A DNA stretch of 30,710 nt from a virus (lineage: Duplodnaviria > Caudoviricetes): positions 1-30,710 of the IMG/VR virus record IMGVR_UViG_3300016472_000051; one strand, 5' to 3'. Below are positions 3-26,874 of the stretch, piece after piece (position 1 is the stretch's first letter; each line of letters starts with the position of its first letter). The notes beneath the pieces are model-generated. The model saw only the letters and a list, made by a program, of their open reading frames with translations, had not been told where the DNA came from and did no database searches. A program made the position numbers and the translations under genes.

Positions 3-2000
3 ATGGAGTGGACCAACGCGCAGGAGGATTCATGCGTGCTAAACTTCATAGTGGATGATGACTACTGGAACGAGCCGCCGGTGACGATCTTCGGCGGCCC
101 TCGGCCCTTTGTCTTGTCGGAATTTAATCAGGACAACGACATTTTCAAACCGGTCCGGCCGCAACAGGCCACGATCGAGATACTGGCATCTATCAACGGC
201 GTCGACCTTGAAGACTTCATAATCGAGGATGATGACCGGCAGATGATCGTCCGTTTCGACTTTGGCAATAATCTAGGGTATTGGAACGGAATCGTGTCAC
301 AGGAGGACATGCAGGAGATATGGATCGCGCAGAACCATATCCTCACCCTGCGGGCCGATGAAGGCTTCGGCAATCTTAAGACGATCCCACTGGTCGATGA
401 CGCGGGGCAGTATCTCTCAGGTGTTTACACGCCATTCGCATACATACAATACGCAGCCGACAAGACGGCGCAATCGTTCTTTAACTGCAACGTCATCAGC
501 AATCTCTTCCACGATTCGATGACCACGGCCAACACGGACACGGGCATCGACCAGTGCTATGTTGACGCCCGGACGTTTGAAGAGGGGTTTCTGAACTTCG
601 ATGACAGTTATCTGGCCCTTGAGAAGATAAACAAGTCATTCAATCAGACCATCTTCCAATGGCAAGGCCAGTGGTGGATCGTGCGGATGGAAGAGCTATT
701 TGTCAACAAGGCGGCGAATATTCGCGGCTTTCAGAATAACAAACCAACAGGCGGTAACCGGGCGACGTTCAACACCCGGTGGATGATCGAGGTCGGCGTG
801 AATGAGGACGTAAAGCCTATCATGCCCGAGATGATTCGGACACTGAACAAGCCGAGCAAAGAGACGTCTGTCCTTTGGCGGTATCAGTTCCCCGATGCCA
901 TCCTTTGCAATCAGAATTTTGAACTCGGCACGCAGACGGCTGTCGGCCCGCCGCAGACGTACACGATAAGCAACTGGACGCATTACAAGACGAGCAGAGA
1001 GACGCCTGTCGCGGCCGGCGGTCTCTTCCAGCGTGTTGTCGAGTTCGACGCACTGGGCGGCGTGTCGGACAATTATGCGATGATTCGCAAGGAGTCATTT
1101 GAGACCTGGGCGTCATCGTGTGAGGTAATTCTGCAGGAGGGTGATATTCTCGACTTTTCACTCCAGTACAAGACCACGGGCAACTTCGGCGGGGATATAA
1201 AGGTCGCACAGGTTCAGCTGAAGCGGATTGAAAGCCTGCAGTATCGGTATGGACTTAATAACGAAGGCGAATGGGTGCTATGTACTACGGACTGGGATAG
1301 TGCGAATAACCCTTACCTGTCCCTTGGTCTTGACGTCGGCCAGCTCGCCAACACATGGACATCGGTGAATGTGACCAGCCGCCCGGTTCCATATCGGTGT
1401 ATTGCAAAGGTCCTGCTTGTCTGCCCGGCCATTGGACCGGGTGCCGAGGCTCATTTCAAGGACCTGCAGTTCGAGATCTTGTCAAAAAATAACGGGACGT
1501 ATGACCGCACCATCCGGGGCAATCTTGACGTCTACACCATCAGCAAATCGGTTCAAAAGAACAGCCAGACGGAGACCTATTTCGATGATAGCACGAACCT
1601 TTACCTGAAGGGGTCGCTGTTCGAGTCGGACGGCGAGACGTTGACCGACAAGAATTGGCTTAGACGTCGCTACAGCTCCGAGCGGTTCGGCTTTAAGCAA
1701 CAGAACGCGATTGCGAACTGGTGGATAAATCGACAGCATCGGACCCGGCTTGAGTGTAACTTCTATGGGCTTAAATGGGACAGGTCGGGGACTAAGTTCC
1801 CGATCGGTTTGATTAATACGATTAACTTTGTCGACGATGCGCCCGACAAGACTTTCGCCATCGTCAACATGCGGGAGATTGATTTCATGAGCTGCATATG
1901 GTCAGCGAATCTTTTAGAGGTCTGGGATGAGCAAAAAGACACGACTGTCGAGCCTGGCGCGCTGGATGTGTACACTAACGAGAACTATCACGAGGACTAA
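3..2000 (+). CDS. Minor tail / tail-tip structural protein, probably 5'-truncated by the window edge
   Basis: 665 aa, beta-rich, acidic/aromatic. It would follow the tape measure gene if the genome is circular and is coupled to the next gene (TAATG). No catalytic motifs seen. Confidence 0.6.
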   Translation: MEWTNAQEDSCVLNFIVDDDYWNEPPVTIFGGPRPFVLSEFNQDNDIFKPVRPQQATIEILASINGVDLEDFIIEDDDRQMIVRFDFGNNLGYWNGIVSQEDMQEIWIAQNHILTLRADEGFGNLKTIPLVDDAGQYLSGVYTPFAYIQYAADKTAQSFFNCNVISNLFHDSMTTANTDTGIDQCYVDARTFEEGFLNFDDSYLALEKINKSFNQTIFQWQGQWWIVRMEELFVNKAANIRGFQNNKPTGGNRATFNTRWMIEVGVNEDVKPIMPEMIRTLNKPSKETSVLWRYQFPDAILCNQNFELGTQTAVGPPQTYTISNWTHYKTSRETPVAAGGLFQRVVEFDALGGVSDNYAMIRKESFETWASSCEVILQEGDILDFSLQYKTTGNFGGDIKVAQVQLKRIESLQYRYGLNNEGEWVLCTTDWDSANNPYLSLGLDVGQLANTWTSVNVTSRPVPYRCIAKVLLVCPAIGPGAEAHFKDLQFEILSKNNGTYDRTIRGNLDVYTISKSVQKNSQTETYFDDSTNLYLKGSLFESDGETLTDKNWLRRRYSSERFGFKQQNAIANWWINRQHRTRLECNFYGLKWDRSGTKFPIGLINTINFVDDAPDKTFAIVNMREIDFMSCIWSANLLEVWDEQKDTTVEPGALDVYTNENYHED

Positions 2001-2677
2001 TGCCTGACGCGGTTAAAGGTGGGGATGTGGTCTTTTACGCAAAGCTAGGGACTAGCTTCTACCCCTTTGCGTGCGCCAAGGACGTCACCATCACGCATAC
2101 GACGGACAAGATTGAGTTGGCCCCGTACACCAGCGGCAAATGGCGGTCCTACATCTACGGCAGAACGACCGGGACCATCAGCTCGAATGGAGTGGTAAAG
2201 GTAGTTCCCGACACGGGCAAGAATACCATCTTCGACCTTCTCGATTCGATGAAGGCACACTTCATCATTCTCACGAAGTACACCACTAGCGACCCGCAGG
2301 GCAACAGCAAGACGTATGAGGTTCCTTGCCTGATTGATGAGGTGACGTTCTCGGGCAGCGTCGGCGCGCTGGCCATCTATTCCTTCACCCTGACGATGAA
2401 CGGGGACCCGACATTCGACCAGGTTGTGGTGGACTCTCCGCTGACGGACGTGGACAGCTGGACCTACAACGCGACGGGTGGCGAAACGACCATCAGCGAC
2501 AGCAGCATCCTCGGCGTCGATGTTCTCGACGTCCGGCGTAACGGCATCGGGCTTGAGGTCATCACGGCAGGCGCCCCGACCGGGTCGCAGGTGAAATATA
2601 CGTCCGGCTCGGGATCCCTTGAGTTCGGCATGGCCCTAGGTGCAGGGGAATGGATCACGACCATCTACGTGGACTGA
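2000..2677 (+). CDS. Tail-tube-like protein (second tube paralog) with C-terminal beta domain
   Basis: N-terminal ~135 aa (ACAKDVTITHTTDKIELAPYTSGKWRSYIYGRTTGTISSNG...YSFTLTMNG) resembles TP901-1-type tail tube proteins. An extra ~80-aa domain follows (VRRNGIG...LEFGMALGAGEWI). Confidence 0.55.
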   Translation: MPDAVKGGDVVFYAKLGTSFYPFACAKDVTITHTTDKIELAPYTSGKWRSYIYGRTTGTISSNGVVKVVPDTGKNTIFDLLDSMKAHFIILTKYTTSDPQGNSKTYEVPCLIDEVTFSGSVGALAIYSFTLTMNGDPTFDQVVVDSPLTDVDSWTYNATGGETTISDSSILGVDVLDVRRNGIGLEVITAGAPTGSQVKYTSGSGSLEFGMALGAGEWITTIYVD

Positions 2678-3501
2678 TGTACGGCGCACGGACATACAAG
2701 GTCACAACGACAGACCCATATCTCGACGTGGTGGGCCTGACCGCCAGTGACGTCATCATCGTCGACAGGAACGGCATCGGCATCAAGCATGTCACTAGCT
2801 TCGGCGGCACGGAGACAGTGGACGTCTATGTCTATGAGTGGTACGGCGTCCGGCTCGGGTCCCTTGTCGCTGGGGACTATCTGATCATCATCAGCAACAT
2901 CGTCCTCGCGACCCGCGTCATCTTGTTCGAGTTCGGGCCTACCCCTGCCGTCGGCACTACCTACAGCGTGACGGACGGCAATGCCATTGCGTCGTACAAG
3001 GTGCAGACGGGTGATACGACGGAGGACGTGCGTGATGCACTACAGACGGAGATTGACAACGCCACATGGCTCACATCCGTCTCGACGCAGGACGTGTCGA
3101 CGAACCGGCTGCAATGCACCCTGTCAGACCCTACTGTAGACCTGACTGTGTCACTTGGCGCCGAGAAATATAAGAAGGGCAGATATGTCACCCTGTCAGG
3201 CGTGAACTATATCATCAACGAGCTGCAGGACCCTGACAATTACCCCACCCTCCCAGCTCTCGCCGCGTCGTATGCGTTCACGGCACTGTCCCCCTTCTCC
3301 GGCACGATTGAGCAATACCTTGAGGAGCCGCTGACCATCACGACCTTCAGCGAATCGACAACGGCAACGACGGACATAACGGGCATCCCGCAGGCAGTGT
3401 CGGTGAACGCCGGCGAGTGCATCATCGACCAGCCTAGCCAAAGGATATGGTTCGACGCGAATTTGAACCCCGGTGAGATAATTAAACTCTTTCAGAAATG
3501 A
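2677..3501 (+). CDS. Tail structural protein
   Basis: Start taken at ATG 2677 (TGATG overlap with upstream stop). Thr-rich beta protein sharing the RNGIG and L-x-x-GE-x-I motifs with the previous protein. Confidence 0.55.
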   Translation: MYGARTYKVTTTDPYLDVVGLTASDVIIVDRNGIGIKHVTSFGGTETVDVYVYEWYGVRLGSLVAGDYLIIISNIVLATRVILFEFGPTPAVGTTYSVTDGNAIASYKVQTGDTTEDVRDALQTEIDNATWLTSVSTQDVSTNRLQCTLSDPTVDLTVSLGAEKYKKGRYVTLSGVNYIINELQDPDNYPTLPALAASYAFTALSPFSGTIEQYLEEPLTITTFSESTTATTDITGIPQAVSVNAGECIIDQPSQRIWFDANLNPGEIIKLFQK

Positions 3502-5546
3502 GAATACCCATATTAGCCATTCTTAGCCTGTTTACGGCCCTATCGTCAACTGCCCAACAGGTGAACCCGGTGCCGGATTATGTGTTCCGGAACCAAATGT
3601 CCGTGGGCCGCAACGCCGTGACGGACACTGCGGCGTACATATCGATCGGGCCGCGCTACGGGGCCAACAAGGGCCTGATGCCGCCGATCGTGTCCGACAC
3701 CGCAGCCATCACAGGCGTGAAGCGCAACGGCCTCCTAATCTTCAGCGTACAGCGGAACAACTTCCAATACTGGGACAGCATCAACAGCAGATGGACAAGC
3801 GTCACGGCAAATGTCGACACCACCATCATATCCACCCGCGCATGGCGCAAGAAAGGCGACGACAGTCTCGGCGCAGTAATAGCCACCCGGACGGATACGA
3901 CGCTACTTTCCACCCGCGCATGGCGGCAGAAGGGTTTAGATTCTCTTGCGGCCATCGAGCTAAATGTAGCAGACACGGCCACGATGCTGAACCCGTACAC
4001 GCGGGGAAGTGGGACGGTGAACTATGTCCCGAAGTTTACGGCCACGCGGACGCTAGGGAACTCGCAGATATTTGATAACGGGACGAATGTAGGAATAGGT
4101 ACTACAAGTCCGAGCGAGAAATTAGATGTTATTGGATTTATGCGCACTACATCAGGCGTGAAAGTAACTGACGGAACTATTGATTTTAGATTATCATGGG
4201 CATCTGGGAATGTAGCATTTTTCGGAAATACAACTAATCACCCGATTGACTTTTATACAAATTTTGCCCAACGCCTCCGCATCACATCCGCAGGCGAACT
4301 CCTCATCGGCACCACCACCGACGCCGGGGCCTACGCCCTGCAGGTAGCGGGGTCCATCTACAATACGACGGGGGCTGTGTTCGCGGCGACGAGTGGGAAT
4401 GTAACCATAGGTGCGACAACGTCACCAAGTTTCAGCTGGAGTGGAACGGGGCAGATGAATATTGAATCAAATATATATGCTTCATCTGGTATTATGTCGC
4501 ATAGCAACACGTCCGGGAACTATTCATTTTGGAACATTGGTAAAAGTCGCGGTACATTAACATCGCCTTCGGCAGTTGCAAGCGGTGAGACAATCGGGGA
4601 CATAAATTACGTCGGTCATGATGGCGCGAGTTATCAATTAGCAGCAACTATCCGTACTGTTATAGGTGGGACAGTTTCGAGTGGAGTTGTACCGGGTGAC
4701 ATACAATTTTTAACTGAAAACACGTCCGGCACATATGCGCTACGTGCAATCATAACAGCCGACGGCAATTTAGGCATCGGCACCACCTCACCATCCGAAC
4801 GCCTGCACGTCAACGGTCGCGTGAGAATCGCTACCATCGACTCCTCTGCATCGCCCATCAATGTACTTTGGGCGAATGCAAGCGGAGTCATCCAAAAGAC
4901 GGCATTCCCGAATGTCATCGCCAACGGGTCGGCGGGGCGCATACCCAAGTACGCCACGGCCACGACGTTCGACACGTCATTGATATATCAAGCATCGAAT
5001 GAGATGTATATCAACACAACCAGCGACGCGGGGGACTTCAAGCTACAGGTCTCCGGCAATACCCTCGTCTCCGATGGGCAGTTCCGCGTGAACGCGAATG
5101 CGAATAACGGCATGGTACTCTCGCGCTCCGGCACCAACTCCGTGGTAATGTACACGAGCAACACGTCGGGCATCATGGAGCTGGGCGTCGCAGGTGCTAC
5201 GGGCGGCACGGGGACGGGCTACACCGGATACGCCGGATACCTTATGACCGAGGCCGCATACCCTTTGCAGTTCGGCAGCGTCGACACGATGCGGATGACG
5301 CTGAATACAGCCGGTGAATTGCTCATCTCGACGAGTACAACCGACAACGGCAATTACAAGCTGCAGGTGGACGGCAATGTGTGGAGTACGGGGAGCATAA
5401 CCACGGGAGACCCTACCAGCGGTACCAAAAAACCGTGGAAGCTCGGCAGCGTGGTCGGTACATCCGTGCAGCTCGACACCGGCAACTATGTCGAAGTCGA
5501 GATAAACGGCACTTTTTACAGGCTTGCGTTAGTCACACCCCTATAA
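3498..5546 (+). CDS. Tail fibre / receptor-binding protein with N-terminal Sec signal peptide
   Basis: 682 aa, G/S/T-rich, with repeated fibre motifs (NVGIGTTSPSEKLDV, NLGIGTTSPSERLHV, GELLIGTTTDAGAYALQVAG-type x3). N-terminus MRIPILAILSLFTALSSTA|QQ looks like an SPase I signal peptide. Confidence 0.75.
   Translation: MRIPILAILSLFTALSSTAQQVNPVPDYVFRNQMSVGRNAVTDTAAYISIGPRYGANKGLMPPIVSDTAAITGVKRNGLLIFSVQRNNFQYWDSINSRWTSVTANVDTTIISTRAWRKKGDDSLGAVIATRTDTTLLSTRAWRQKGLDSLAAIELNVADTATMLNPYTRGSGTVNYVPKFTATRTLGNSQIFDNGTNVGIGTTSPSEKLDVIGFMRTTSGVKVTDGTIDFRLSWASGNVAFFGNTTNHPIDFYTNFAQRLRITSAGELLIGTTTDAGAYALQVAGSIYNTTGAVFAATSGNVTIGATTSPSFSWSGTGQMNIESNIYASSGIMSHSNTSGNYSFWNIGKSRGTLTSPSAVASGETIGDINYVGHDGASYQLAATIRTVIGGTVSSGVVPGDIQFLTENTSGTYALRAIITADGNLGIGTTSPSERLHVNGRVRIATIDSSASPINVLWANASGVIQKTAFPNVIANGSAGRIPKYATATTFDTSLIYQASNEMYINTTSDAGDFKLQVSGNTLVSDGQFRVNANANNGMVLSRSGTNSVVMYTSNTSGIMELGVAGATGGTGTGYTGYAGYLMTEAAYPLQFGSVDTMRMTLNTAGELLISTSTTDNGNYKLQVDGNVWSTGSITTGDPTSGTKKPWKLGSVVGTSVQLDTGNYVEVEINGTFYRLALVTPL
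3831..3925 (+). repeat. Direct repeat within tail fibre (26-codon unit)
   Basis: TCCACCCGCGCATGGCG at 3831-3847 and 3909-3925, 78 bp apart. Encodes DTTIISTRAWRKKGDDSL / DTTLLSTRAWRQKGLDSL. Confidence 0.9.
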
Positions 5547-5562
5547 ACCTAAACCCCTACAC

Positions 5563-5799
5563 ATGCGGAAAATGCAGACCCTCGGCCTAACGATTCTCGC
5601 GTTCATTGCCATCTTCTCCGTCATGGCATGGCGCACAAAGGACACGCAACCAAAGACCTACACGCTGACGCTGACGGCGCAAGAGGTGCAGGTAGTATAC
5701 GACGCGCTGGGCGAACTGCCAGCCAAAACGACGGAGAGCATACGCGGGAAAATCGCGCAACAAGTAACTTCGCAAAACCAAACAATCGATAAAAAATGA
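5563..5799 (+). CDS. Small tail-fibre-associated protein with signal peptide/TM segment
   Basis: Hydrophobic N-terminus (LGLTILAFIAIFSVMA), then TYTLTLTAQEVQVVYDALGELPAK..., a short helical protein type recalled from positions downstream of phage fibre genes. Confidence 0.6.
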   Translation: MRKMQTLGLTILAFIAIFSVMAWRTKDTQPKTYTLTLTAQEVQVVYDALGELPAKTTESIRGKIAQQVTSQNQTIDKK

Positions 5800-6206
5800 A
5801 ACGTATCATCTTCATCCTTCTCGCCCTTGTTAGTGTAGCACAGGCACAAGACAGCTCGGCCGTGAGGTCAAAGCGGCAGCCCATCAAAGAGTTCAAAATC
5901 TGGTACCAAGGCCAGCTACTTGACGCCGACAATCTCGAGGTCGATTGCGTCGAGGATGACCTATCCACCTTCGCCAATTTCAAGTACACGCTGACCGACA
6001 GCATCGGGCAGACCCTCGCCATGGGCTTCCTCAAGATGACCGGCCCCGAGTACAATCTGTATCTGACCCGTCCAAACCACGGCGATAGGGCCACGGCATG
6101 GGTGATGCAACAGCTCAAGCTACAGGTCCGGCAGCAGCGTCAGGCAGTCCAGTCAGCGAAGACGCCAGCGACAGGCACCACGACCGGGACAACTACGAAG
6201 CAATGA
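5796..6206 (+). CDS. Tail-fibre-associated protein with Sec signal peptide
   Basis: MKRIIFILLALVSVAQA|QD is a classic AxA signal peptide with +1 Gln. ATGA overlaps on both sides. Confidence 0.65.
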   Translation: MKRIIFILLALVSVAQAQDSSAVRSKRQPIKEFKIWYQGQLLDADNLEVDCVEDDLSTFANFKYTLTDSIGQTLAMGFLKMTGPEYNLYLTRPNHGDRATAWVMQQLKLQVRQQRQAVQSAKTPATGTTTGTTTKQ

Positions 6207-6667
6207 CCATCCGACAAGGCACACATGCACCCCTTCGGCTTCCAACACTACTTTGGAGGCCGAAGGTGCTTGCGTACATGGTCCGATTCGATCAGTCGGC
6301 GCGCTACGACATAGGCCCCGACCAGTCCGACATAAACAAGCTCTTCGGCATCGGCTACCTTCCGCATCATTTCCACAATTCCGTCCGCATAGGGTGGAAC
6401 TGGGACGAACAGAAGCAGAGGGTGGTGACATGGGCCTACTGGTACAAAGACAGCCTGAATTACAGCGAAAAATTGCACGAAGTAAGGCTGAACGTCACCG
6501 AACGCTACGCCATCCACTTCTTCCCCGACAGGCATACCATCATGGTGCCTGGCAAGTCTATGACAATACCCATCCAGCCGCGCACGTCAGGATATCTGTT
6601 AGGCCCATATTTTGGCGGCAATCAGACAGCTCCGCATGATATAAACCTACACATGACACCATGCTAG
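6203..6667 (+). CDS. Hypothetical protein (beta-rich, aromatic)
   Basis: Start taken at ATG 6203 (ATGA overlap). Motifs DINKLFG, NSVRIGW and GYLLGPYFGGN; function unknown. Confidence 0.6.
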   Translation: MTIRQGTHAPLRLPTLLWRPKVLAYMVRFDQSARYDIGPDQSDINKLFGIGYLPHHFHNSVRIGWNWDEQKQRVVTWAYWYKDSLNYSEKLHEVRLNVTERYAIHFFPDRHTIMVPGKSMTIPIQPRTSGYLLGPYFGGNQTAPHDINLHMTPC

Positions 6668-7191
6668 ACATTTTAATTGTCAAGACTGCTGAGACATATC
6701 TCGGTCAGACCGAGAAGGCAGGGAATTTAGGATGGCAAGATCCAGAGTTCGAGGCAAAGATGAAGGCTGTCGGATGGAAGCCAACCCATTCGTGGTGTTG
6801 CTACTTTGCCGAGCTCGTTTGGAAGGAAGCACTTACCATGCGCAGGCCGCTGAATTACGACAAGCTAATGGAGCTCTATTCTAAATTTTTCTCCGCATCA
6901 TGCACTGCCACGTATGCCAACTTCCGCGGATCTTCGTTTTTTACCACCGGCAACATTCCAAAGGCTGGCGCGCTGGCTGTCTGGAGATACGGAAGTGGAT
7001 GGACGGGTCATATAGGCATATGCACCAAAGGAGCCGACAAGTTCGGCCGGTTCACCACTATCGAGGGCAACACCAACGCAGCCGGCGAACGGGAAGGAAT
7101 GTTTGTGATGCGGAAAGACCGCAGGACGGGCCTGCCGTTCAAGGAGAAGGGTCTGAACCTCATCGGGTTCATATACCCACCGAATGTGTAA
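6661..7191 (+). CDS. Endolysin, CHAP-domain amidase/peptidase
   Basis: CHAP motifs: WCCYF (catalytic Cys), P..GALAVW, GHIGI (His), TIEGNTN. Confidence 0.88.
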   Translation: MLDILIVKTAETYLGQTEKAGNLGWQDPEFEAKMKAVGWKPTHSWCCYFAELVWKEALTMRRPLNYDKLMELYSKFFSASCTATYANFRGSSFFTTGNIPKAGALAVWRYGSGWTGHIGICTKGADKFGRFTTIEGNTNAAGEREGMFVMRKDRRTGLPFKEKGLNLIGFIYPPNV

Positions 7192-7200: not shown

Positions 7201-7539
7201 ATGACTCCGGGCATCTACAACATTAGAGCATATCGCAACGACACCCTGCAAAGGACTGTCACCATCACCGATGGCTCGGCACTGCCCATAAGCCTGGCGA
7301 ACGCGACGATGAAGATGGAGGTAAGGGACAAGCCCGACGGGGATGTCTACCTGACGCTGACCGAAGGGGATGGCTTGACAGTCGGCGGTGCTGGAAACAA
7401 CGTCGTGACCATTTCCAAGGTGGTCAACATCGACGGCGGCTGTTACTTTTACGACCTGCAGGCCACCTTTACCTCGGGCGTGGTCACCACCTACATAAAG
7501 GGCAGTTTTTTAGTCACAGATGACATTACCCTAGCATGA
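7201..7539 (+). CDS. Virion structural-type protein (BppU N-terminal-like beta domain)
   Basis: Pattern YNI....DTL..TVT...PISL.NATMKMEVR...YFYDLQATF..GVVTTYIKGSFLV resembles baseplate-upper/Ig-like phage domains. Confidence 0.5.
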   Translation: MTPGIYNIRAYRNDTLQRTVTITDGSALPISLANATMKMEVRDKPDGDVYLTLTEGDGLTVGGAGNNVVTISKVVNIDGGCYFYDLQATFTSGVVTTYIKGSFLVTDDITLA

Positions 7540-8045
7540 GCAGCGTGAACATAACAGTGGACGAGGATAGCGTACAGGTGCTGGTGGGTGAGCTGCGCTA
7601 TTATGGTTCGTTCTATTCGACGCAAGACCAGACCAACGCAGGAGCAACGTCCGAGAACCTGATGACATACAACAACACGGATCTCTCGAATGGCGTCAGC
7701 ATCGTCTCCAATTCACGTATCACAATAGCCAACGCCGGAATCTACAACATTCAATTCTCTGCGCAGCTGGACAAGACAGATGCCGGGAATGATGCCATTG
7801 AGATATGGCTGAAAAAGAATGGAAGCAATGTATCAAACAGCAGCACAGTAGTGACCTTGCACGCGCAGGATGGAAAGGCTGTAGCCGCATGGAACTGGTT
7901 TGTCAATGCTGCAGCTGCAGACTATTTTGAAATTGCCTGGAACAGTGCAGACACTGCCATGTTCATCAACTACAGCACAGGGGGCAGCAACCCCACACGG
8001 CCTGCTATTCCTTCGATAATATTAACTGTCAACCGCGTCGGATGA
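7536..8045 (+). CDS. Jelly-roll (C1q/BclA-like) phage structural-type protein
   Basis: YGSFYSTQDQT...ITIANAGIYNIQFSAQL...IEIWLKKNG...DYFEIAW. Beta-sandwich pattern typical of fibre-tip/decoration domains. Confidence 0.5.
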   Translation: MSSVNITVDEDSVQVLVGELRYYGSFYSTQDQTNAGATSENLMTYNNTDLSNGVSIVSNSRITIANAGIYNIQFSAQLDKTDAGNDAIEIWLKKNGSNVSNSSTVVTLHAQDGKAVAAWNWFVNAAAADYFEIAWNSADTAMFINYSTGGSNPTRPAIPSIILTVNRVG

Positions 8046-8257
8046 AAGTACCATTTGAGTTGATCGTATGGGCAGTCGGCATGGTGGGTGGGCTTGTAGG
8101 CATCTACGTTCGTATGGAGACAAAGATGAAAGAGCTGGACGTGCGGGTGCAGGCCCTTGAAAAAACGGACAAAGTGATGAATGCAAAATTGGATGAGATA
8201 CTTAAAACATTGCACCAATTAGCATTAGATTTGAAAGACAAGCAAGACCGAAGCTAA
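8042..8257 (+). CDS. Small membrane protein (holin/antiholin-like; TM plus coiled coil)
   Basis: One N-terminal TM segment (LIVWAVGMVGGLVGIYV) and a heptad-rich tail; located in the lysis module. Confidence 0.55.
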   Translation: MKVPFELIVWAVGMVGGLVGIYVRMETKMKELDVRVQALEKTDKVMNAKLDEILKTLHQLALDLKDKQDRS

Positions 8258-8275
8258 CAACAAAAATTAGATACA

Positions 8276-8500
8276 ATGAGCAAATTGTTTCAACTCAATG
8301 CACAAGACGTCCTTAAAGGTATCGTCATTGCCGCACTCGTGACAGTGCTGGGTTCCATTCAGAGCATCCTTGAGGCCGGCGAACTTCCGACACAAACCGA
8401 ATGGATGAACATCGCGAAGATGGCAGGTGCTGCAATCATTTCCTACCTGCTGAAAAATCTGTTTACCAATAGTCAGGGTCAAATCGCTAAACCTGAATGA
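8276..8500 (+). CDS. Holin (two TM segments)
   Basis: 74 aa with two hydrophobic helices and a YLLKNLFTNS tail, immediately upstream of the spanin. Confidence 0.7.
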   Translation: MSKLFQLNAQDVLKGIVIAALVTVLGSIQSILEAGELPTQTEWMNIAKMAGAAIISYLLKNLFTNSQGQIAKPE

Positions 8501-8955
8501 TGCGATTGTACGCTGCTATGCTGTTCGTGCTGTTGCTGGTTGGCTGTGACCCAGTGAAGCGGGCCATGAAACGTAAGGCAAAGGTGGACCGCATCATCGC
8601 GGACTATCTGGTCGACAATCCCATCAAGTCCGACACTGTCTACATGCCTGGGGCCACTATCGTGCGGCATGATACGATCGTCAACGAGAATATCTACGTC
8701 GATACCATCCGTCTTAACGACACGCTGCGGATCCATTCAACCCAGTGGCGGGACATTGTGCGGGAGGTCAACGTGACCGACACGATATGGATCCGGCCGG
8801 ATGTTTCCGGCCCACTCCGGGCAATGCAGGCCGAACTGGATGCCGCAAGGCATAAAATAGAACGTCAAAGAGACATGATACGGAAATTTTCTATGGGCGC
8901 GGGTATCCTTGGCCTTCTTATGCTTATTATCATTATCGTCGTGAAGATCAAATAG
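8497..8955 (+). CDS. Unimolecular spanin (u-spanin-like)
   Basis: N-terminal lipobox LLVG|C plus C-terminal TM segment (GAGILGLLMLIIIIVV-KIK); last gene of the lysis module. Confidence 0.75.
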   Translation: MMRLYAAMLFVLLLVGCDPVKRAMKRKAKVDRIIADYLVDNPIKSDTVYMPGATIVRHDTIVNENIYVDTIRLNDTLRIHSTQWRDIVREVNVTDTIWIRPDVSGPLRAMQAELDAARHKIERQRDMIRKFSMGAGILGLLMLIIIIVVKIK

Positions 8956-25336: not shown

Positions 25337-25879
25337 ATGCCCATAGGTTCGTATTCTGCCTTCCGCGACATCATACGGATGGTCTTGATGCAAAACCCGT
25401 CAAGCGTCCTCGACCTTGGCGTCGGGCACGGCATCAATGGTGCCGGCGTGCGAAACTGGCTCGACCTTGGGTATAAGTACAAGACGCGGCTTGTCGGCGT
25501 GGAGGGCTTTGCCGACTATTACAGCCCTTTGTGGGACTGTTACGACAAGGTGCATGTTATGGACATACGGAATTTTTTGGCCGACAATAAAGAAAAGTTC
25601 GACTGTATCATCATGACGGATGTCCTTGAGCATTTCGACAAGCTTGAGGGTGAGACGATCCTGCAAATGGCTGAGGCTTCATTAAATCCGGGCGGCGGTT
25701 TACTAATTAGTACACCCGCCGTGTGGATCGAGCAAGGTGACGCCTACGGCAATGAATTTGAGCGGCATAAATCGCTATGGCATTGGACCGACTTCATAGG
25801 CCATGAGATTGTGAAGGACGGCCGCGAGGATGACATGGGATACATGATGCTGGTGGTCAAAATTACCAAACCCGCCTAA
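25337..25879 (+). CDS. Class I SAM-dependent methyltransferase (small-molecule/sugar type)
   Basis: VLDLGVGHG motif I, VGVE, FDCIIMTDVLEHF, LNPGGGLLISTP. No DPPY/NPPY or PC DNA-MTase motif. Confidence 0.85.
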   Translation: MPIGSYSAFRDIIRMVLMQNPSSVLDLGVGHGINGAGVRNWLDLGYKYKTRLVGVEGFADYYSPLWDCYDKVHVMDIRNFLADNKEKFDCIIMTDVLEHFDKLEGETILQMAEASLNPGGGLLISTPAVWIEQGDAYGNEFERHKSLWHWTDFIGHEIVKDGREDDMGYMMLVVKITKPA

Positions 25880-25881
25880 AT

Positions 25882-26874
25882 ATGAAGGTGCTTAACAGTA
25901 TCCACCTATACCCTCCTGAGCATCTATGCGGGGCCGAGTTTATGGCCCACTGGATGAACAAGTACATGCACGGCCAGGGAGATGAAGTTAGGGTCTTGCT
26001 GCATCAAGCGCGGCACTACCGGATTGAGTCCATGTACGTCTATGATGGCATAGATGTATTCCCACCGGAGCAGCTGCTGATTGAGAAGTTGTTTCTGTGG
26101 TCAGATGCCGTTTTCACCCATCTCGATTACACGGACTGGACGATCTCGATGGGTCAGCTATTCAAACGTCCGATCTTTCACCTCATCCACAACACGCATA
26201 CATATGGGAAGATAGTGATGGCCGATGACCCGCAGTTCATCGTGTACAACAGCCAATGGGCGCATGAGATGTTGGGCTACAAGCACGAAAGCATTGTGGT
26301 CCATCCACCTTGCGACTGGAGGCACTACGATGTGCAGATGGACACGTCGCTGAACTATTACATCACCCTCATCAACCTCGACCAAAACAAGGGCGGGCAT
26401 ATCCTTCGCAAGATTGCCGAGGCAATGCCTGACCGGAAGTTTCTCGGCGTGATGGGCAGTTATTCCGAACCGGCGAATATCGGCCAGCATGTCAATCAGC
26501 CGAACAATGTGAAAGTGGTTCCAAAGACGGATGACATACGGCAATACTATCGGCAGACGCGGATCCTCATCATGCCGTCGGAATACGAGAGCTGGGGCCG
26601 GACGGCAACTGAGGCGATGTGTTCCGGCATCCCCGTCATTAGCTCGGGAACGCCGGGCCTTCGGGAGAACTGCGGCACGGCTGGCATCTATGTCGACAGG
26701 GATGACATTGCAGGGTGGGTGAAGGCTATTGAGAGCCTCGACCATCACAAGGCGTATAACAAATGGCGGCGGCGGTCCTTTGAGCGCAGCCGCGAGCTGG
26801 ACCCACAGGCAGAACTTGCGGCATTGCGTATCTTTGTTGGCGATAGCATCAACAAGTACAAAGCGCGGGCATGA
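25882..26874 (+). CDS. GT-B fold glycosyltransferase, GT4-like
   Basis: YPP...GAE N-terminal motif, NS.W, KGG, MPSEYESWGRTATEAMCSGIPVI (EX7E), GL.E..G.AG. Confidence 0.9.
   Translation: MKVLNSIHLYPPEHLCGAEFMAHWMNKYMHGQGDEVRVLLHQARHYRIESMYVYDGIDVFPPEQLLIEKLFLWSDAVFTHLDYTDWTISMGQLFKRPIFHLIHNTHTYGKIVMADDPQFIVYNSQWAHEMLGYKHESIVVHPPCDWRHYDVQMDTSLNYYITLINLDQNKGGHILRKIAEAMPDRKFLGVMGSYSEPANIGQHVNQPNNVKVVPKTDDIRQYYRQTRILIMPSEYESWGRTATEAMCSGIPVISSGTPGLRENCGTAGIYVDRDDIAGWVKAIESLDHHKAYNKWRRRSFERSRELDPQAELAALRIFVGDSINKYKARA

Follow-up and report, generated by a model that had tools for sequence, protein, structure and literature searches.

The only tail fibre of this virus is best read as a protein that would be exported, trimmed and glycosylated in the host periplasm, with its freed N-terminus docking at lysis on the XD domain of a tail built in the cytoplasm, a reading to which we give a probability of roughly 0.6. 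The window, i.e., the whole stretch of 30,710 nucleotides analyzed, carries 41 ORFs, all on the + strand, and codes for an HK97-type head, portal, terminase, tail tube, tape measure, CHAP endolysin and replication genes; its genome type is that of a nearly complete siphovirus. In the closest relatives the tape-measure gene is 587–618 aa long and continues directly into the gene that opens this window, which holds 427 aa of it; about 0.5 kb of tape measure is therefore missing between the window ends, leaving no room for a second fibre gene. The source is freshwater, with four metagenome runs of one study containing 68–97% of the sampled words of positions 2000–6200; no RNA data set is listed among those that contain them. 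The fibre itself (3498..5546, + strand, 682 aa) is the sole fibre-like gene, with PHROG tail-fibre matches at E 7e-15 and 5e-12; it is a fibre-type sequence inside the tail module, its start overlapping the stop of the preceding gene for a 274-aa protein. Its PDB matches are confined to the distal part, which resembles the Bdellovibrio MAT fibres (8ond and 8ol4, E about 2e-5).

Sequons at the fibre N-terminus

The N-terminal trimer domain and stalk of the fibre carry eight O-glycosylation sequons (3624..3980, + strand): D43 DTA, D67 DTA, D93 DSI, D107 DTT, D122 DSL, D133 DTT, D148 DSL and D159 DTA. According to the accessible text of PMC12871550, the O-glycosylation system of Bacteroidota modifies D-(S/T)-(A/I/L/V/M/T), with Ser also among the third-residue preferences, on exported proteins only; the transferase and the function are described there as still unknown. 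The sequence-only reading had held that 8 of the 10 Asp in residues 1–163 begin this triplet, and the count is borne out, the two exceptions being D27 (DYV) and D121 (DDS); a DTM (D596) is likewise found near the C-terminus, as that reading had stated. The enrichment is not due to chance. Shuffles of residues 1–163 give a mean of 0.94 sequons, and none of 200,000 reach 8; when the choice of region is allowed for by taking the best 120-aa window in 20,000 shuffles of the whole protein, again none reach 8. The fibre as a whole has 9 sequons against 3.05 expected (p 0.002), while the 519 residues from 164 to 682 show no enrichment (1 of 20 Asp). Sequon density per ORF, proposed earlier as a check, follows the same line: the four ORFs with export signals have 15 sequons against 4.4 expected and the 36 others 20 against 26.2.

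A 26-aa repeat that begins and ends with a sequon occurs twice within the cluster (3816..3971, + strand), and the proposal that the duplication adds two sites holds, as the eight sequons fall to six when one copy is removed. Even then 6 of 8 Asp begin a sequon, with a shuffle mean of 0.65 and none of 200,000 shuffles reaching 6. At the DNA level the duplication is seen as a 78-nt spacing with 76% identity over 41 nt; contigs in runs X1 and X2 span it without mismatch, and in runs X1–X3 there is a contig carrying one extra 78-nt unit. The repeat motif occurs in no other ORF of the window, and across 225 proteins the repeat number ranges from 0 to 10. Among 164 distinct repeat copies the first sequon is kept in 133 and the second in all 164.

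The same retention is seen in the 74 homologs under 90% identity, of which 51 retain the sequon at D43, 60 at D67 and 72 at D93, with the third residue at D93 varying among V, T, A, I and L; at D27 none of the 74 has a sequon. In the first 200 residues of 18 signal-bearing fibres there are 106 sequons against 16.3 expected (observed/expected 6.5), with 74 against 48.4 in the remainder of these proteins. When only residues 21–200 are taken, the D-motifs stand at 106 against 16.1 expected, and replacing D by another residue abolishes the enrichment (observed/expected: E 0/1.4, N 10/18.9, G 26/24.5). The residue after D-S/T belongs to the allowed set in 106 of 128 cases (120 if Ser is included), in contrast to 42 of 163 in 51 signal-less fibres. 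The sequon motif is, as judged from these homologs, under selection; the fibre carries the motif of a Bacteroidota O-glycosylation substrate, and its predicted leader would place it among exported proteins. It had been anticipated that fibres without signal peptides would also lack the sequons, and the 51 signal-less fibres do show no enrichment in their first 200 residues (42 against 42.7 expected, observed/expected 0.98; remainder 65 against 77.6), this being a contrast between families, since the N-termini of the two sets are not homologous and members are related within each set. No verified signal-less homolog of the fibre N-domain was found. A closer case in point is locus L054, which by inspection matches the type of the signal-bearing loci L021, L029 and L034 in its gene order and in its portal, adaptor and terminator: there the anchor peptide that in other loci carries the XD domain described below is joined directly to a fibre that lacks a signal and has 3 sequons among its 47 Asp, while the phage's own membrane protein has 5. 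Thus, the expected lack of enrichment is also seen in a phage type shared with signal-bearing relatives.

A homologous control is provided by the family of the 136-aa signal-bearing protein (5796..6206, + strand), which follows the fibre genes. The DSI that the sequence-only reading had pointed out in this protein is present (DSI68); alone it has p 0.44, and it gains weight only through its homologs. Among 75 distinct homologs, 14 have a signal and 61 do not, and a sequon in the corresponding loop is present in 12 of the 14 as against none of the 61. The 12 form one clade, whereas a second signal-bearing lineage of two has other sequons, and the tree calls for at least two changes of the signal label; on these sequences, the family gains sequons together with the signal in two lineages. 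Relatedness inflates the Fisher and Mann–Whitney p-values for the fibre and 136-aa contrasts, and no weight is placed on them. Three loci count against the proposal, L019, L032 and L034, in which a signal-bearing fibre is paired with a signal-less gene of the 136-aa family. An internal control that the sequence-only reading had missed is a lipoprotein with a C-terminal membrane segment (8497..8955, + strand), presumably of unimolecular-spanin architecture, in which 5 sequons stand where 0.52 would be expected; of 14 lipoproteins taken from the compared loci, 12 have 5–6.

It might be held instead that the fibre docks on the tail and yet its D-S/T triplets are mainly structural, serving as Asx turns or helix caps, or are only partly glycosylated, the glycan having no selected role. 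The fold may indeed favor D-S, as both residues are invariant at D93 and D-S-E stands there in a chromosomal relative (L107); moreover, cultured signal-bearing tail proteins manage without sequons. This explanation is nevertheless unlikely: the third residue stays within the allowed set (72/74 at D93, 164/164 in the second sequon of the repeat), N-S/T, an equally good cap, is depleted, and unrelated exported proteins, i.e., the spanin-like lipoprotein and the 136-aa family, gain sequons too. Further, the accessible text of PMC12871550 has the common sequons nearly fully substituted in Bacteroidota.

The XD domain and the predicted docking peptide

Immediately upstream of the fibre lie two signal-less proteins whose models show the beta-jellyroll of the XD2 and XD3 domains of the CBA120 tailspike TSP4. 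The first, of 225 aa (2000..2677, + strand), is a tail-tube paralog (phrog_1407; NF047353 tail tube), and its residues 148–225 (2441–2674, + strand) form the predicted XD docking fold, of the T4 gp10 type, with a pLDDT of 96.8. It best matches TSP4 residues 265–333 (Z 8.6, rmsd 1.9, 66 aligned), a score tied with those of neck/adaptor domains (Z 8.2–8.3) and not far from what unrelated models commonly reach, and it also matches TSP4 residues 187–250 (Z 8.3, rmsd 1.8); the segments 187–250 and 265–333 are assigned to XD2 and XD3 by position. The second protein, of 274 aa (2677..3501, + strand), has a second XD-like domain that is split around an inserted domain, being formed by the N- and C-terminal ends with the invariant motifs DRNGIG and L..GE.I; its model (residues 3–274) matches TSP4 265–332 (Z 7.8, rmsd 1.9, 65 aligned). 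Neither a sequence search of the XD domain against the PDB nor a Foldseek search against the PDB at E 0.001 gave a match.

The XD domain, of about 75–78 residues with an RNG motif, appears to travel with signal-bearing fibres. Of 31 signal-bearing loci that offer 1 kb or more of upstream DNA, 30 contain it as against 0 of 43 signal-less loci, a co-occurrence that is partly circular, since the profile was built from signal-bearing loci and could miss a divergent XD in the controls; one clade of contigs of roughly 13 kb predominates among these controls, and near-duplicates occur in both sets. The count excludes three loci that lack upstream DNA (L020, L030, L033) and two that repeat counted contigs (L032, L099), and it retains L027, the sole locus without XD, which had been placed among the signal-bearing loci because of a weak match to the repeat. 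The carriers of XD elsewhere are diverse: an FN3 protein (L015), an anchor peptide (L021, L022, L024, L031, L100), the tail terminator (L029), the head-tail adaptor (L019, L026, L028, L034) and a standalone form (L025), and the domain also occurs at the end of signal-less fibre-like proteins. This docking adaptor, which the sequence-only reading had missed, could, if the models are right, explain how an exported fibre reaches the virion.

The mature N-terminus of the fibre is predicted to dock on the XD domain of the 225-aa protein. A model of three copies of fibre residues 20–111 with three copies of that domain scores 0.73 (runs 0.91, 0.66 and 0.73) as against 0.00 for the best of three controls. 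Among solved complexes 116 of 157 attain the score mark, among mismatched pairs 2 of 215, though a job of 3+3 chains is unlike those on which the tool was calibrated and may pass by likeness to solved XD–peptide complexes. At least 95% of the contacts agree between runs and the partner pLDDT is at least 89. The modeled interface joins fibre residues 20–27 (3555..3578, + strand), a predicted docking peptide without a sequon, to residues 180–183, 185, 194–196 and 211–218 of the 225-aa protein, including the segments RNGI and MALGAGEW; its columns are only slightly more conserved than the rest (0.64 vs 0.55, p 0.053), which counts against the model. The peptide is the very one uncovered by the predicted cleavage of the leader, and among the 74 homologs N23 is kept in 74, P26 in 71 and Q20 in 70 (with 4 gaps). 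In all 18 signal-bearing fibres the first standard sequon comes at about mature residue 19 or later. Locus L029 counts against the model, as its mature N-terminus opens with an extended-motif DTS inside the would-be docking peptide.

A parallel might be struck with the branched tailspikes of cultured phages, in which the XD2 and XD3 domains of CBA120 TSP4 dock other tailspike trimers (PMC8825819, accessible text) and a branching domain of RBP1 in the Klebsiella phage KP32 receives a short conserved N-terminal peptide of RBP2 (PMC13352976, accessible text). Shared with these systems are the beta-jellyroll XD fold and the predicted docking between trimers, in which a fibre without an anchor is bound through its first few residues. 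Unlike in them, the first tailspike is not what bears XD here, the domain being found on a tail-tube paralog and on a protein in which it is split, and the docked fibre is the only fibre, is sequon-rich and has a cleavable leader, so that the peptide would be exposed only after export. The arrangement would, as modeled, work like a branched multi-RBP system, and it is not a member of that class, the docking domain being outside the first receptor-binding protein.

Two further systems among the closest known also have signal-bearing proteins. In Bdellovibrio, the MAT fibres (Bd2133, 8ol4) likewise begin with a signal peptide, behind which comes a trimeric beta fibre of phage-like build; in the accessible text of PMC10769870 they are chromosomal surface adhesins with their own conserved, beta-rich 130-aa N-domain and no virion, and the word "glycosyl" is absent from it, whereas the fibre discussed here is encoded in a phage tail module. 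The other system comprises 13 signal-bearing tail-module proteins of four cultured Cellulophaga phages: phi18:3 gp085–087, phi19:1 gp101–104, Nekkels_1 53–55 and Ingeline_1 31–33. Like this fibre they sit in the fibre slot with Sec-type leaders, 12 of the 13 ending before Gln, and seven of them are annotated as structural or virion proteins by MS/MS (phi18:3 and phi19:1); unlike it they are sequon-poor, with 17 sequons against 43 expected. For the Ingeline and Nekkels lyase proteins, signal peptides are recorded in the accessible text of PMC8776804, which gives no mechanism. None of these proteins has a significant sequence match to the fibre and there is no clear match to XD upstream of them: phi18:3 gp083 gives none, and Ingeline1_30 gives a weak one (E 0.08, hhalign probability 2%).

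These comparisons bear on the possibility that the exported and glycosylated fibre never joins the virion, acting rather as a decoy, adhesin or receptor blocker on the infected cell, in vesicles or in the lysate, in the manner of the MAT fibres. The likeness of its distal part to those fibres, the presence of distant signal-bearing relatives of the N-domain in 3 of 401 genomes and the chance that the MS/MS annotation of the cultured phages stems from co-purified material lend it some weight. It is improbable all the same: the genome is nearly complete and has no other fibre gene, this one occupies the fibre slot and its start overlaps the stop of a tail gene, the XD domain travels with the fibre across phage types and is bound to it in the model, and the mature sequence has no evident membrane anchor.

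Export, host and the proposed route

The leader on which a docking fibre of this kind would depend is a predicted Sec/SPI signal peptide (residues 1–19; 3498..3554, + strand) with a basic n-region, a hydrophobic core and a small-residue cleavage site, ending in STA before QQ. The Gln at +1 conforms to the Q-rule of Bacteroidetes signal peptides (PMC5837995, accessible text). By a hydropathy heuristic of our own, used in place of SignalP, a leader is called in 117 of 120 homologs, the remaining three being cut at the 5' end, and in 202 of 210 Met-start homologs with a whole N-domain (from a profile search, best 150 of 207 matches); A/G/S-Q lies within residues 13–42 in 204 of the 210. The eight exceptions look like late start calls, since three begin inside the leader and five at a Met that follows AQ in close relatives. 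In 65 proteins the mean identity to the window is 23% for the leaders and 59% for the mature domains, i.e., the leader sequences diverge yet keep their leader character. The fibre is likely exported, to judge from its leader. That most of it stays in the cytoplasm, through an internal start or poor export, and assembles in the ordinary way with sequons inherited from a captured host secreted protein is very improbable, for although an in-frame Met34 is present in 48 of the 74 homologs and the eight database proteins have no called signal, Met34 is Leu in the other 26, a start there would delete the predicted docking peptide, those eight begin inside leaders or at the Met after AQ of relatives with full leaders, and chromosomal relatives hold next to no sequons that could have been inherited.

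The host is likely a member of the Bacteroidota, as hinted by the Q-rule leader, the sequon-rich lipoprotein and Atlas neighbours that are mostly Bacteroidota (scores under 0.9). The Atlas also pointed to PF26696, again with scores under 0.9, which is a lead only. Pfam has no family, and NCBIfam nothing above its cut-off, for the fibre, its N-domain, the XD domain or the small proteins. Among 50,697 phage records no cultured relatives of the 136-aa core or the fibre N-terminus were found, these records giving only weak distal fibre matches and one weak match to the 225-aa protein. The genome scan gave no prophage copy or host; a single 19-residue match in a non-phage context was treated as chance, and G001, an assembly titled Bacteroidetes, had no match. 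The three of 401 genomes already mentioned are from the phylum of G001, and in them the N-domain weakly matches chromosomal secreted proteins with leaders, which within residues 1–200 contain 0, 0 and 1 sequons. This sequon-poverty suggests that a host secreted domain was captured and later loaded with sequons, the saturation having arisen in phages.

The proposed route may be laid out as follows. The fibre would be exported by Sec through its leader, and signal peptidase I would cleave it, with pyroglutamate formation probably following, as in established biology. Host glycan would then be attached at the sequons, each trimer receiving at most 24 glycans on its stalk, in a fibre whose N-domain is predicted by the model to trimerize, and two small exported proteins may assist folding. 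One of these is the 136-aa protein, a putative helper; the other is a 78-aa protein with a signal-like N-terminus (5563..5799, + strand; hydrophobic N-termini in 10 of 10 homologs of the loci), which its position suggests to be a fibre-assembly helper. Docking would come after the action of holin, endolysin and spanin mixes the compartments, residues 20–27 then binding the XD domain as modeled. A lysis set that would do this is available in the CHAP endolysin (6661..7191, + strand; PF05257, E 7e-9), a holin-like ORF (8042–8257; phrog_1296 holin, E 3e-4) and the spanin-like lipoprotein.

The sequence-only reading had gone further in proposing that the signal peptide exists to get the fibre decorated with glycan. 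Predicted export and selection on the motif speak for the first parts of that proposal, whereas the purpose is not supported, since the 13 Cellulophaga proteins bear such leaders and fewer sequons than expected; being of the exported type yet sequon-poor, they indicate that the export of tail proteins is wider than sequon saturation. As for the job of the glycan, the sequons lie on the virion-proximal stalk and not on the receptor-binding part, so mimicry at the tip fits less well than stabilization or stiffening. That the glycans form a protective collar which stiffens the stalk, both during the periplasmic wait and afterwards, is the weakest element of the proposal and is offered tentatively, at a little under even odds.

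Possible two-compartment virions

The assembly of tailed-phage particles is held to take place entirely in the cytoplasm. Glycosylated virions are known among mycobacteriophages, where phage-encoded glycosyltransferases modify capsid or tail proteins; the present case is like theirs in having sugar, here predicted, on a structural protein of a tailed phage, and unlike theirs in that a host periplasmic transferase would act on an exported fibre. The fibre resembles the substrates of Bacteroidota O-glycosylation in its motif, in its third-residue preference including Ser, in its predicted export and in the Gln after the cleavage site; the known substrates in the accessible text of PMC12871550 are host proteins, while here the candidate is a phage fibre, and the literature search found no phage substrate of that system. 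Both the docking hardware and the glycosylation system are already known, and their combination across the inner membrane is the new part: no description of a route of export, glycosylation and docking was found in the literature searched, outside which most subscription journals lie, nor was a precedent found in the accessible parts of PMC13288928 and two bioRxiv preprints.

By a wider conjecture, to which we would give slightly less than an even chance, these viruses represent a widespread class of Bacteroidota tailed phages with two-compartment virions. Their fibres would pass through Sec, signal peptidase, glutaminyl cyclase and O-glycosylation, and would be captured at lysis by a mobile XD socket borne on at least six kinds of neck or tail protein; cleavage of the leader would arm the plug, the stalk glycans would be required, and the virions would carry the glycan of their last host. 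The host secretory line would then be used much as the glycoproteins of enveloped viruses use the secretory pathway.

The analysis names a concrete predicted plug of 8 residues and a socket of 78, and it offers strongly selected candidate substrates for the O-glycosylation system of Bacteroidota; the cultured Cellulophaga phages are the place where the export half is open to proteomics. If the proposed route is true, this phage would complete its particle with a component that was made beyond the inner membrane and glycosylated by the host, and its virion would carry a host-specific glycan.

Fibres with and without an export leader

The two kinds of fibre, with and without a predicted export leader, occur side by side in a single phage locus (L015, 7941-16383), in which sequons of the Bacteroidota O-glycosylation type per aspartate stand at 20/56 in the signal-bearing fibre versus 5/58 in its signal-less neighbour. 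A separate set of many contigs of about 13 kb (L055, 1-8291, and similar ones among L036-L092), which combine a signal-less fibre with small unfamiliar structural genes, is a compact virus type.

In the window's own fibre gene, contigs from three freshwater metagenome runs (X1-X3) step back by 78 nt at 3831-3908, pointing to strains with one further copy of the 26-residue repeat. The middle of the gene (4008-4800) has a GC content of 48%, with flanks at 58% and 57%, consistent with a swapped receptor-binding segment.

Cultured Cellulophaga phages

Sequons are depleted (17 observed versus 43 expected) in the signal-bearing tail proteins of the cultured Cellulophaga phages phi18:3, phi19:1, Nekkels_1 and Ingeline_1 (loci L102, 6892-12584; L103, 5902-12039; L104, 5902-11802; L105, 5866-10970); avoidance of the periplasmic transferase could be the cause. 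Just 5' of the first signal-bearing fibre gene of Ingeline_1 lies Ingeline1_30 (L105, 5187-5864), whose C-terminal end carries a stretch weakly resembling the T4 gp10-type XD docking domain (E 0.08; hhalign probability 2%), a candidate for the domain that would bind the fibre N-terminus in a cultured phage.

Further genes and possible routes to glycosylation

The fibre-to-lysis interval of the window holds three conserved, uncharacterised signal-less genes (6203-6667, 7201-7539 and 7536-8045), the last with a weak match to BclA_C (E 0.0016). Immediately downstream of the major capsid gene, there are genes for a methyltransferase and a GT4 glycosyltransferase (25337-26874). These enzymes may act on the capsid while it is still cytoplasmic, which would be another way for the virion to acquire sugar.

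The window's spanin-like lipoprotein (8497-8955) has 5 sequons. Among 14 lipoproteins chosen from related loci, 12 carry 5-6; in L054, a phage with a signal-less fibre, one membrane protein likewise has 5. Glycosylation by the host may be general among the spanins of these phages.
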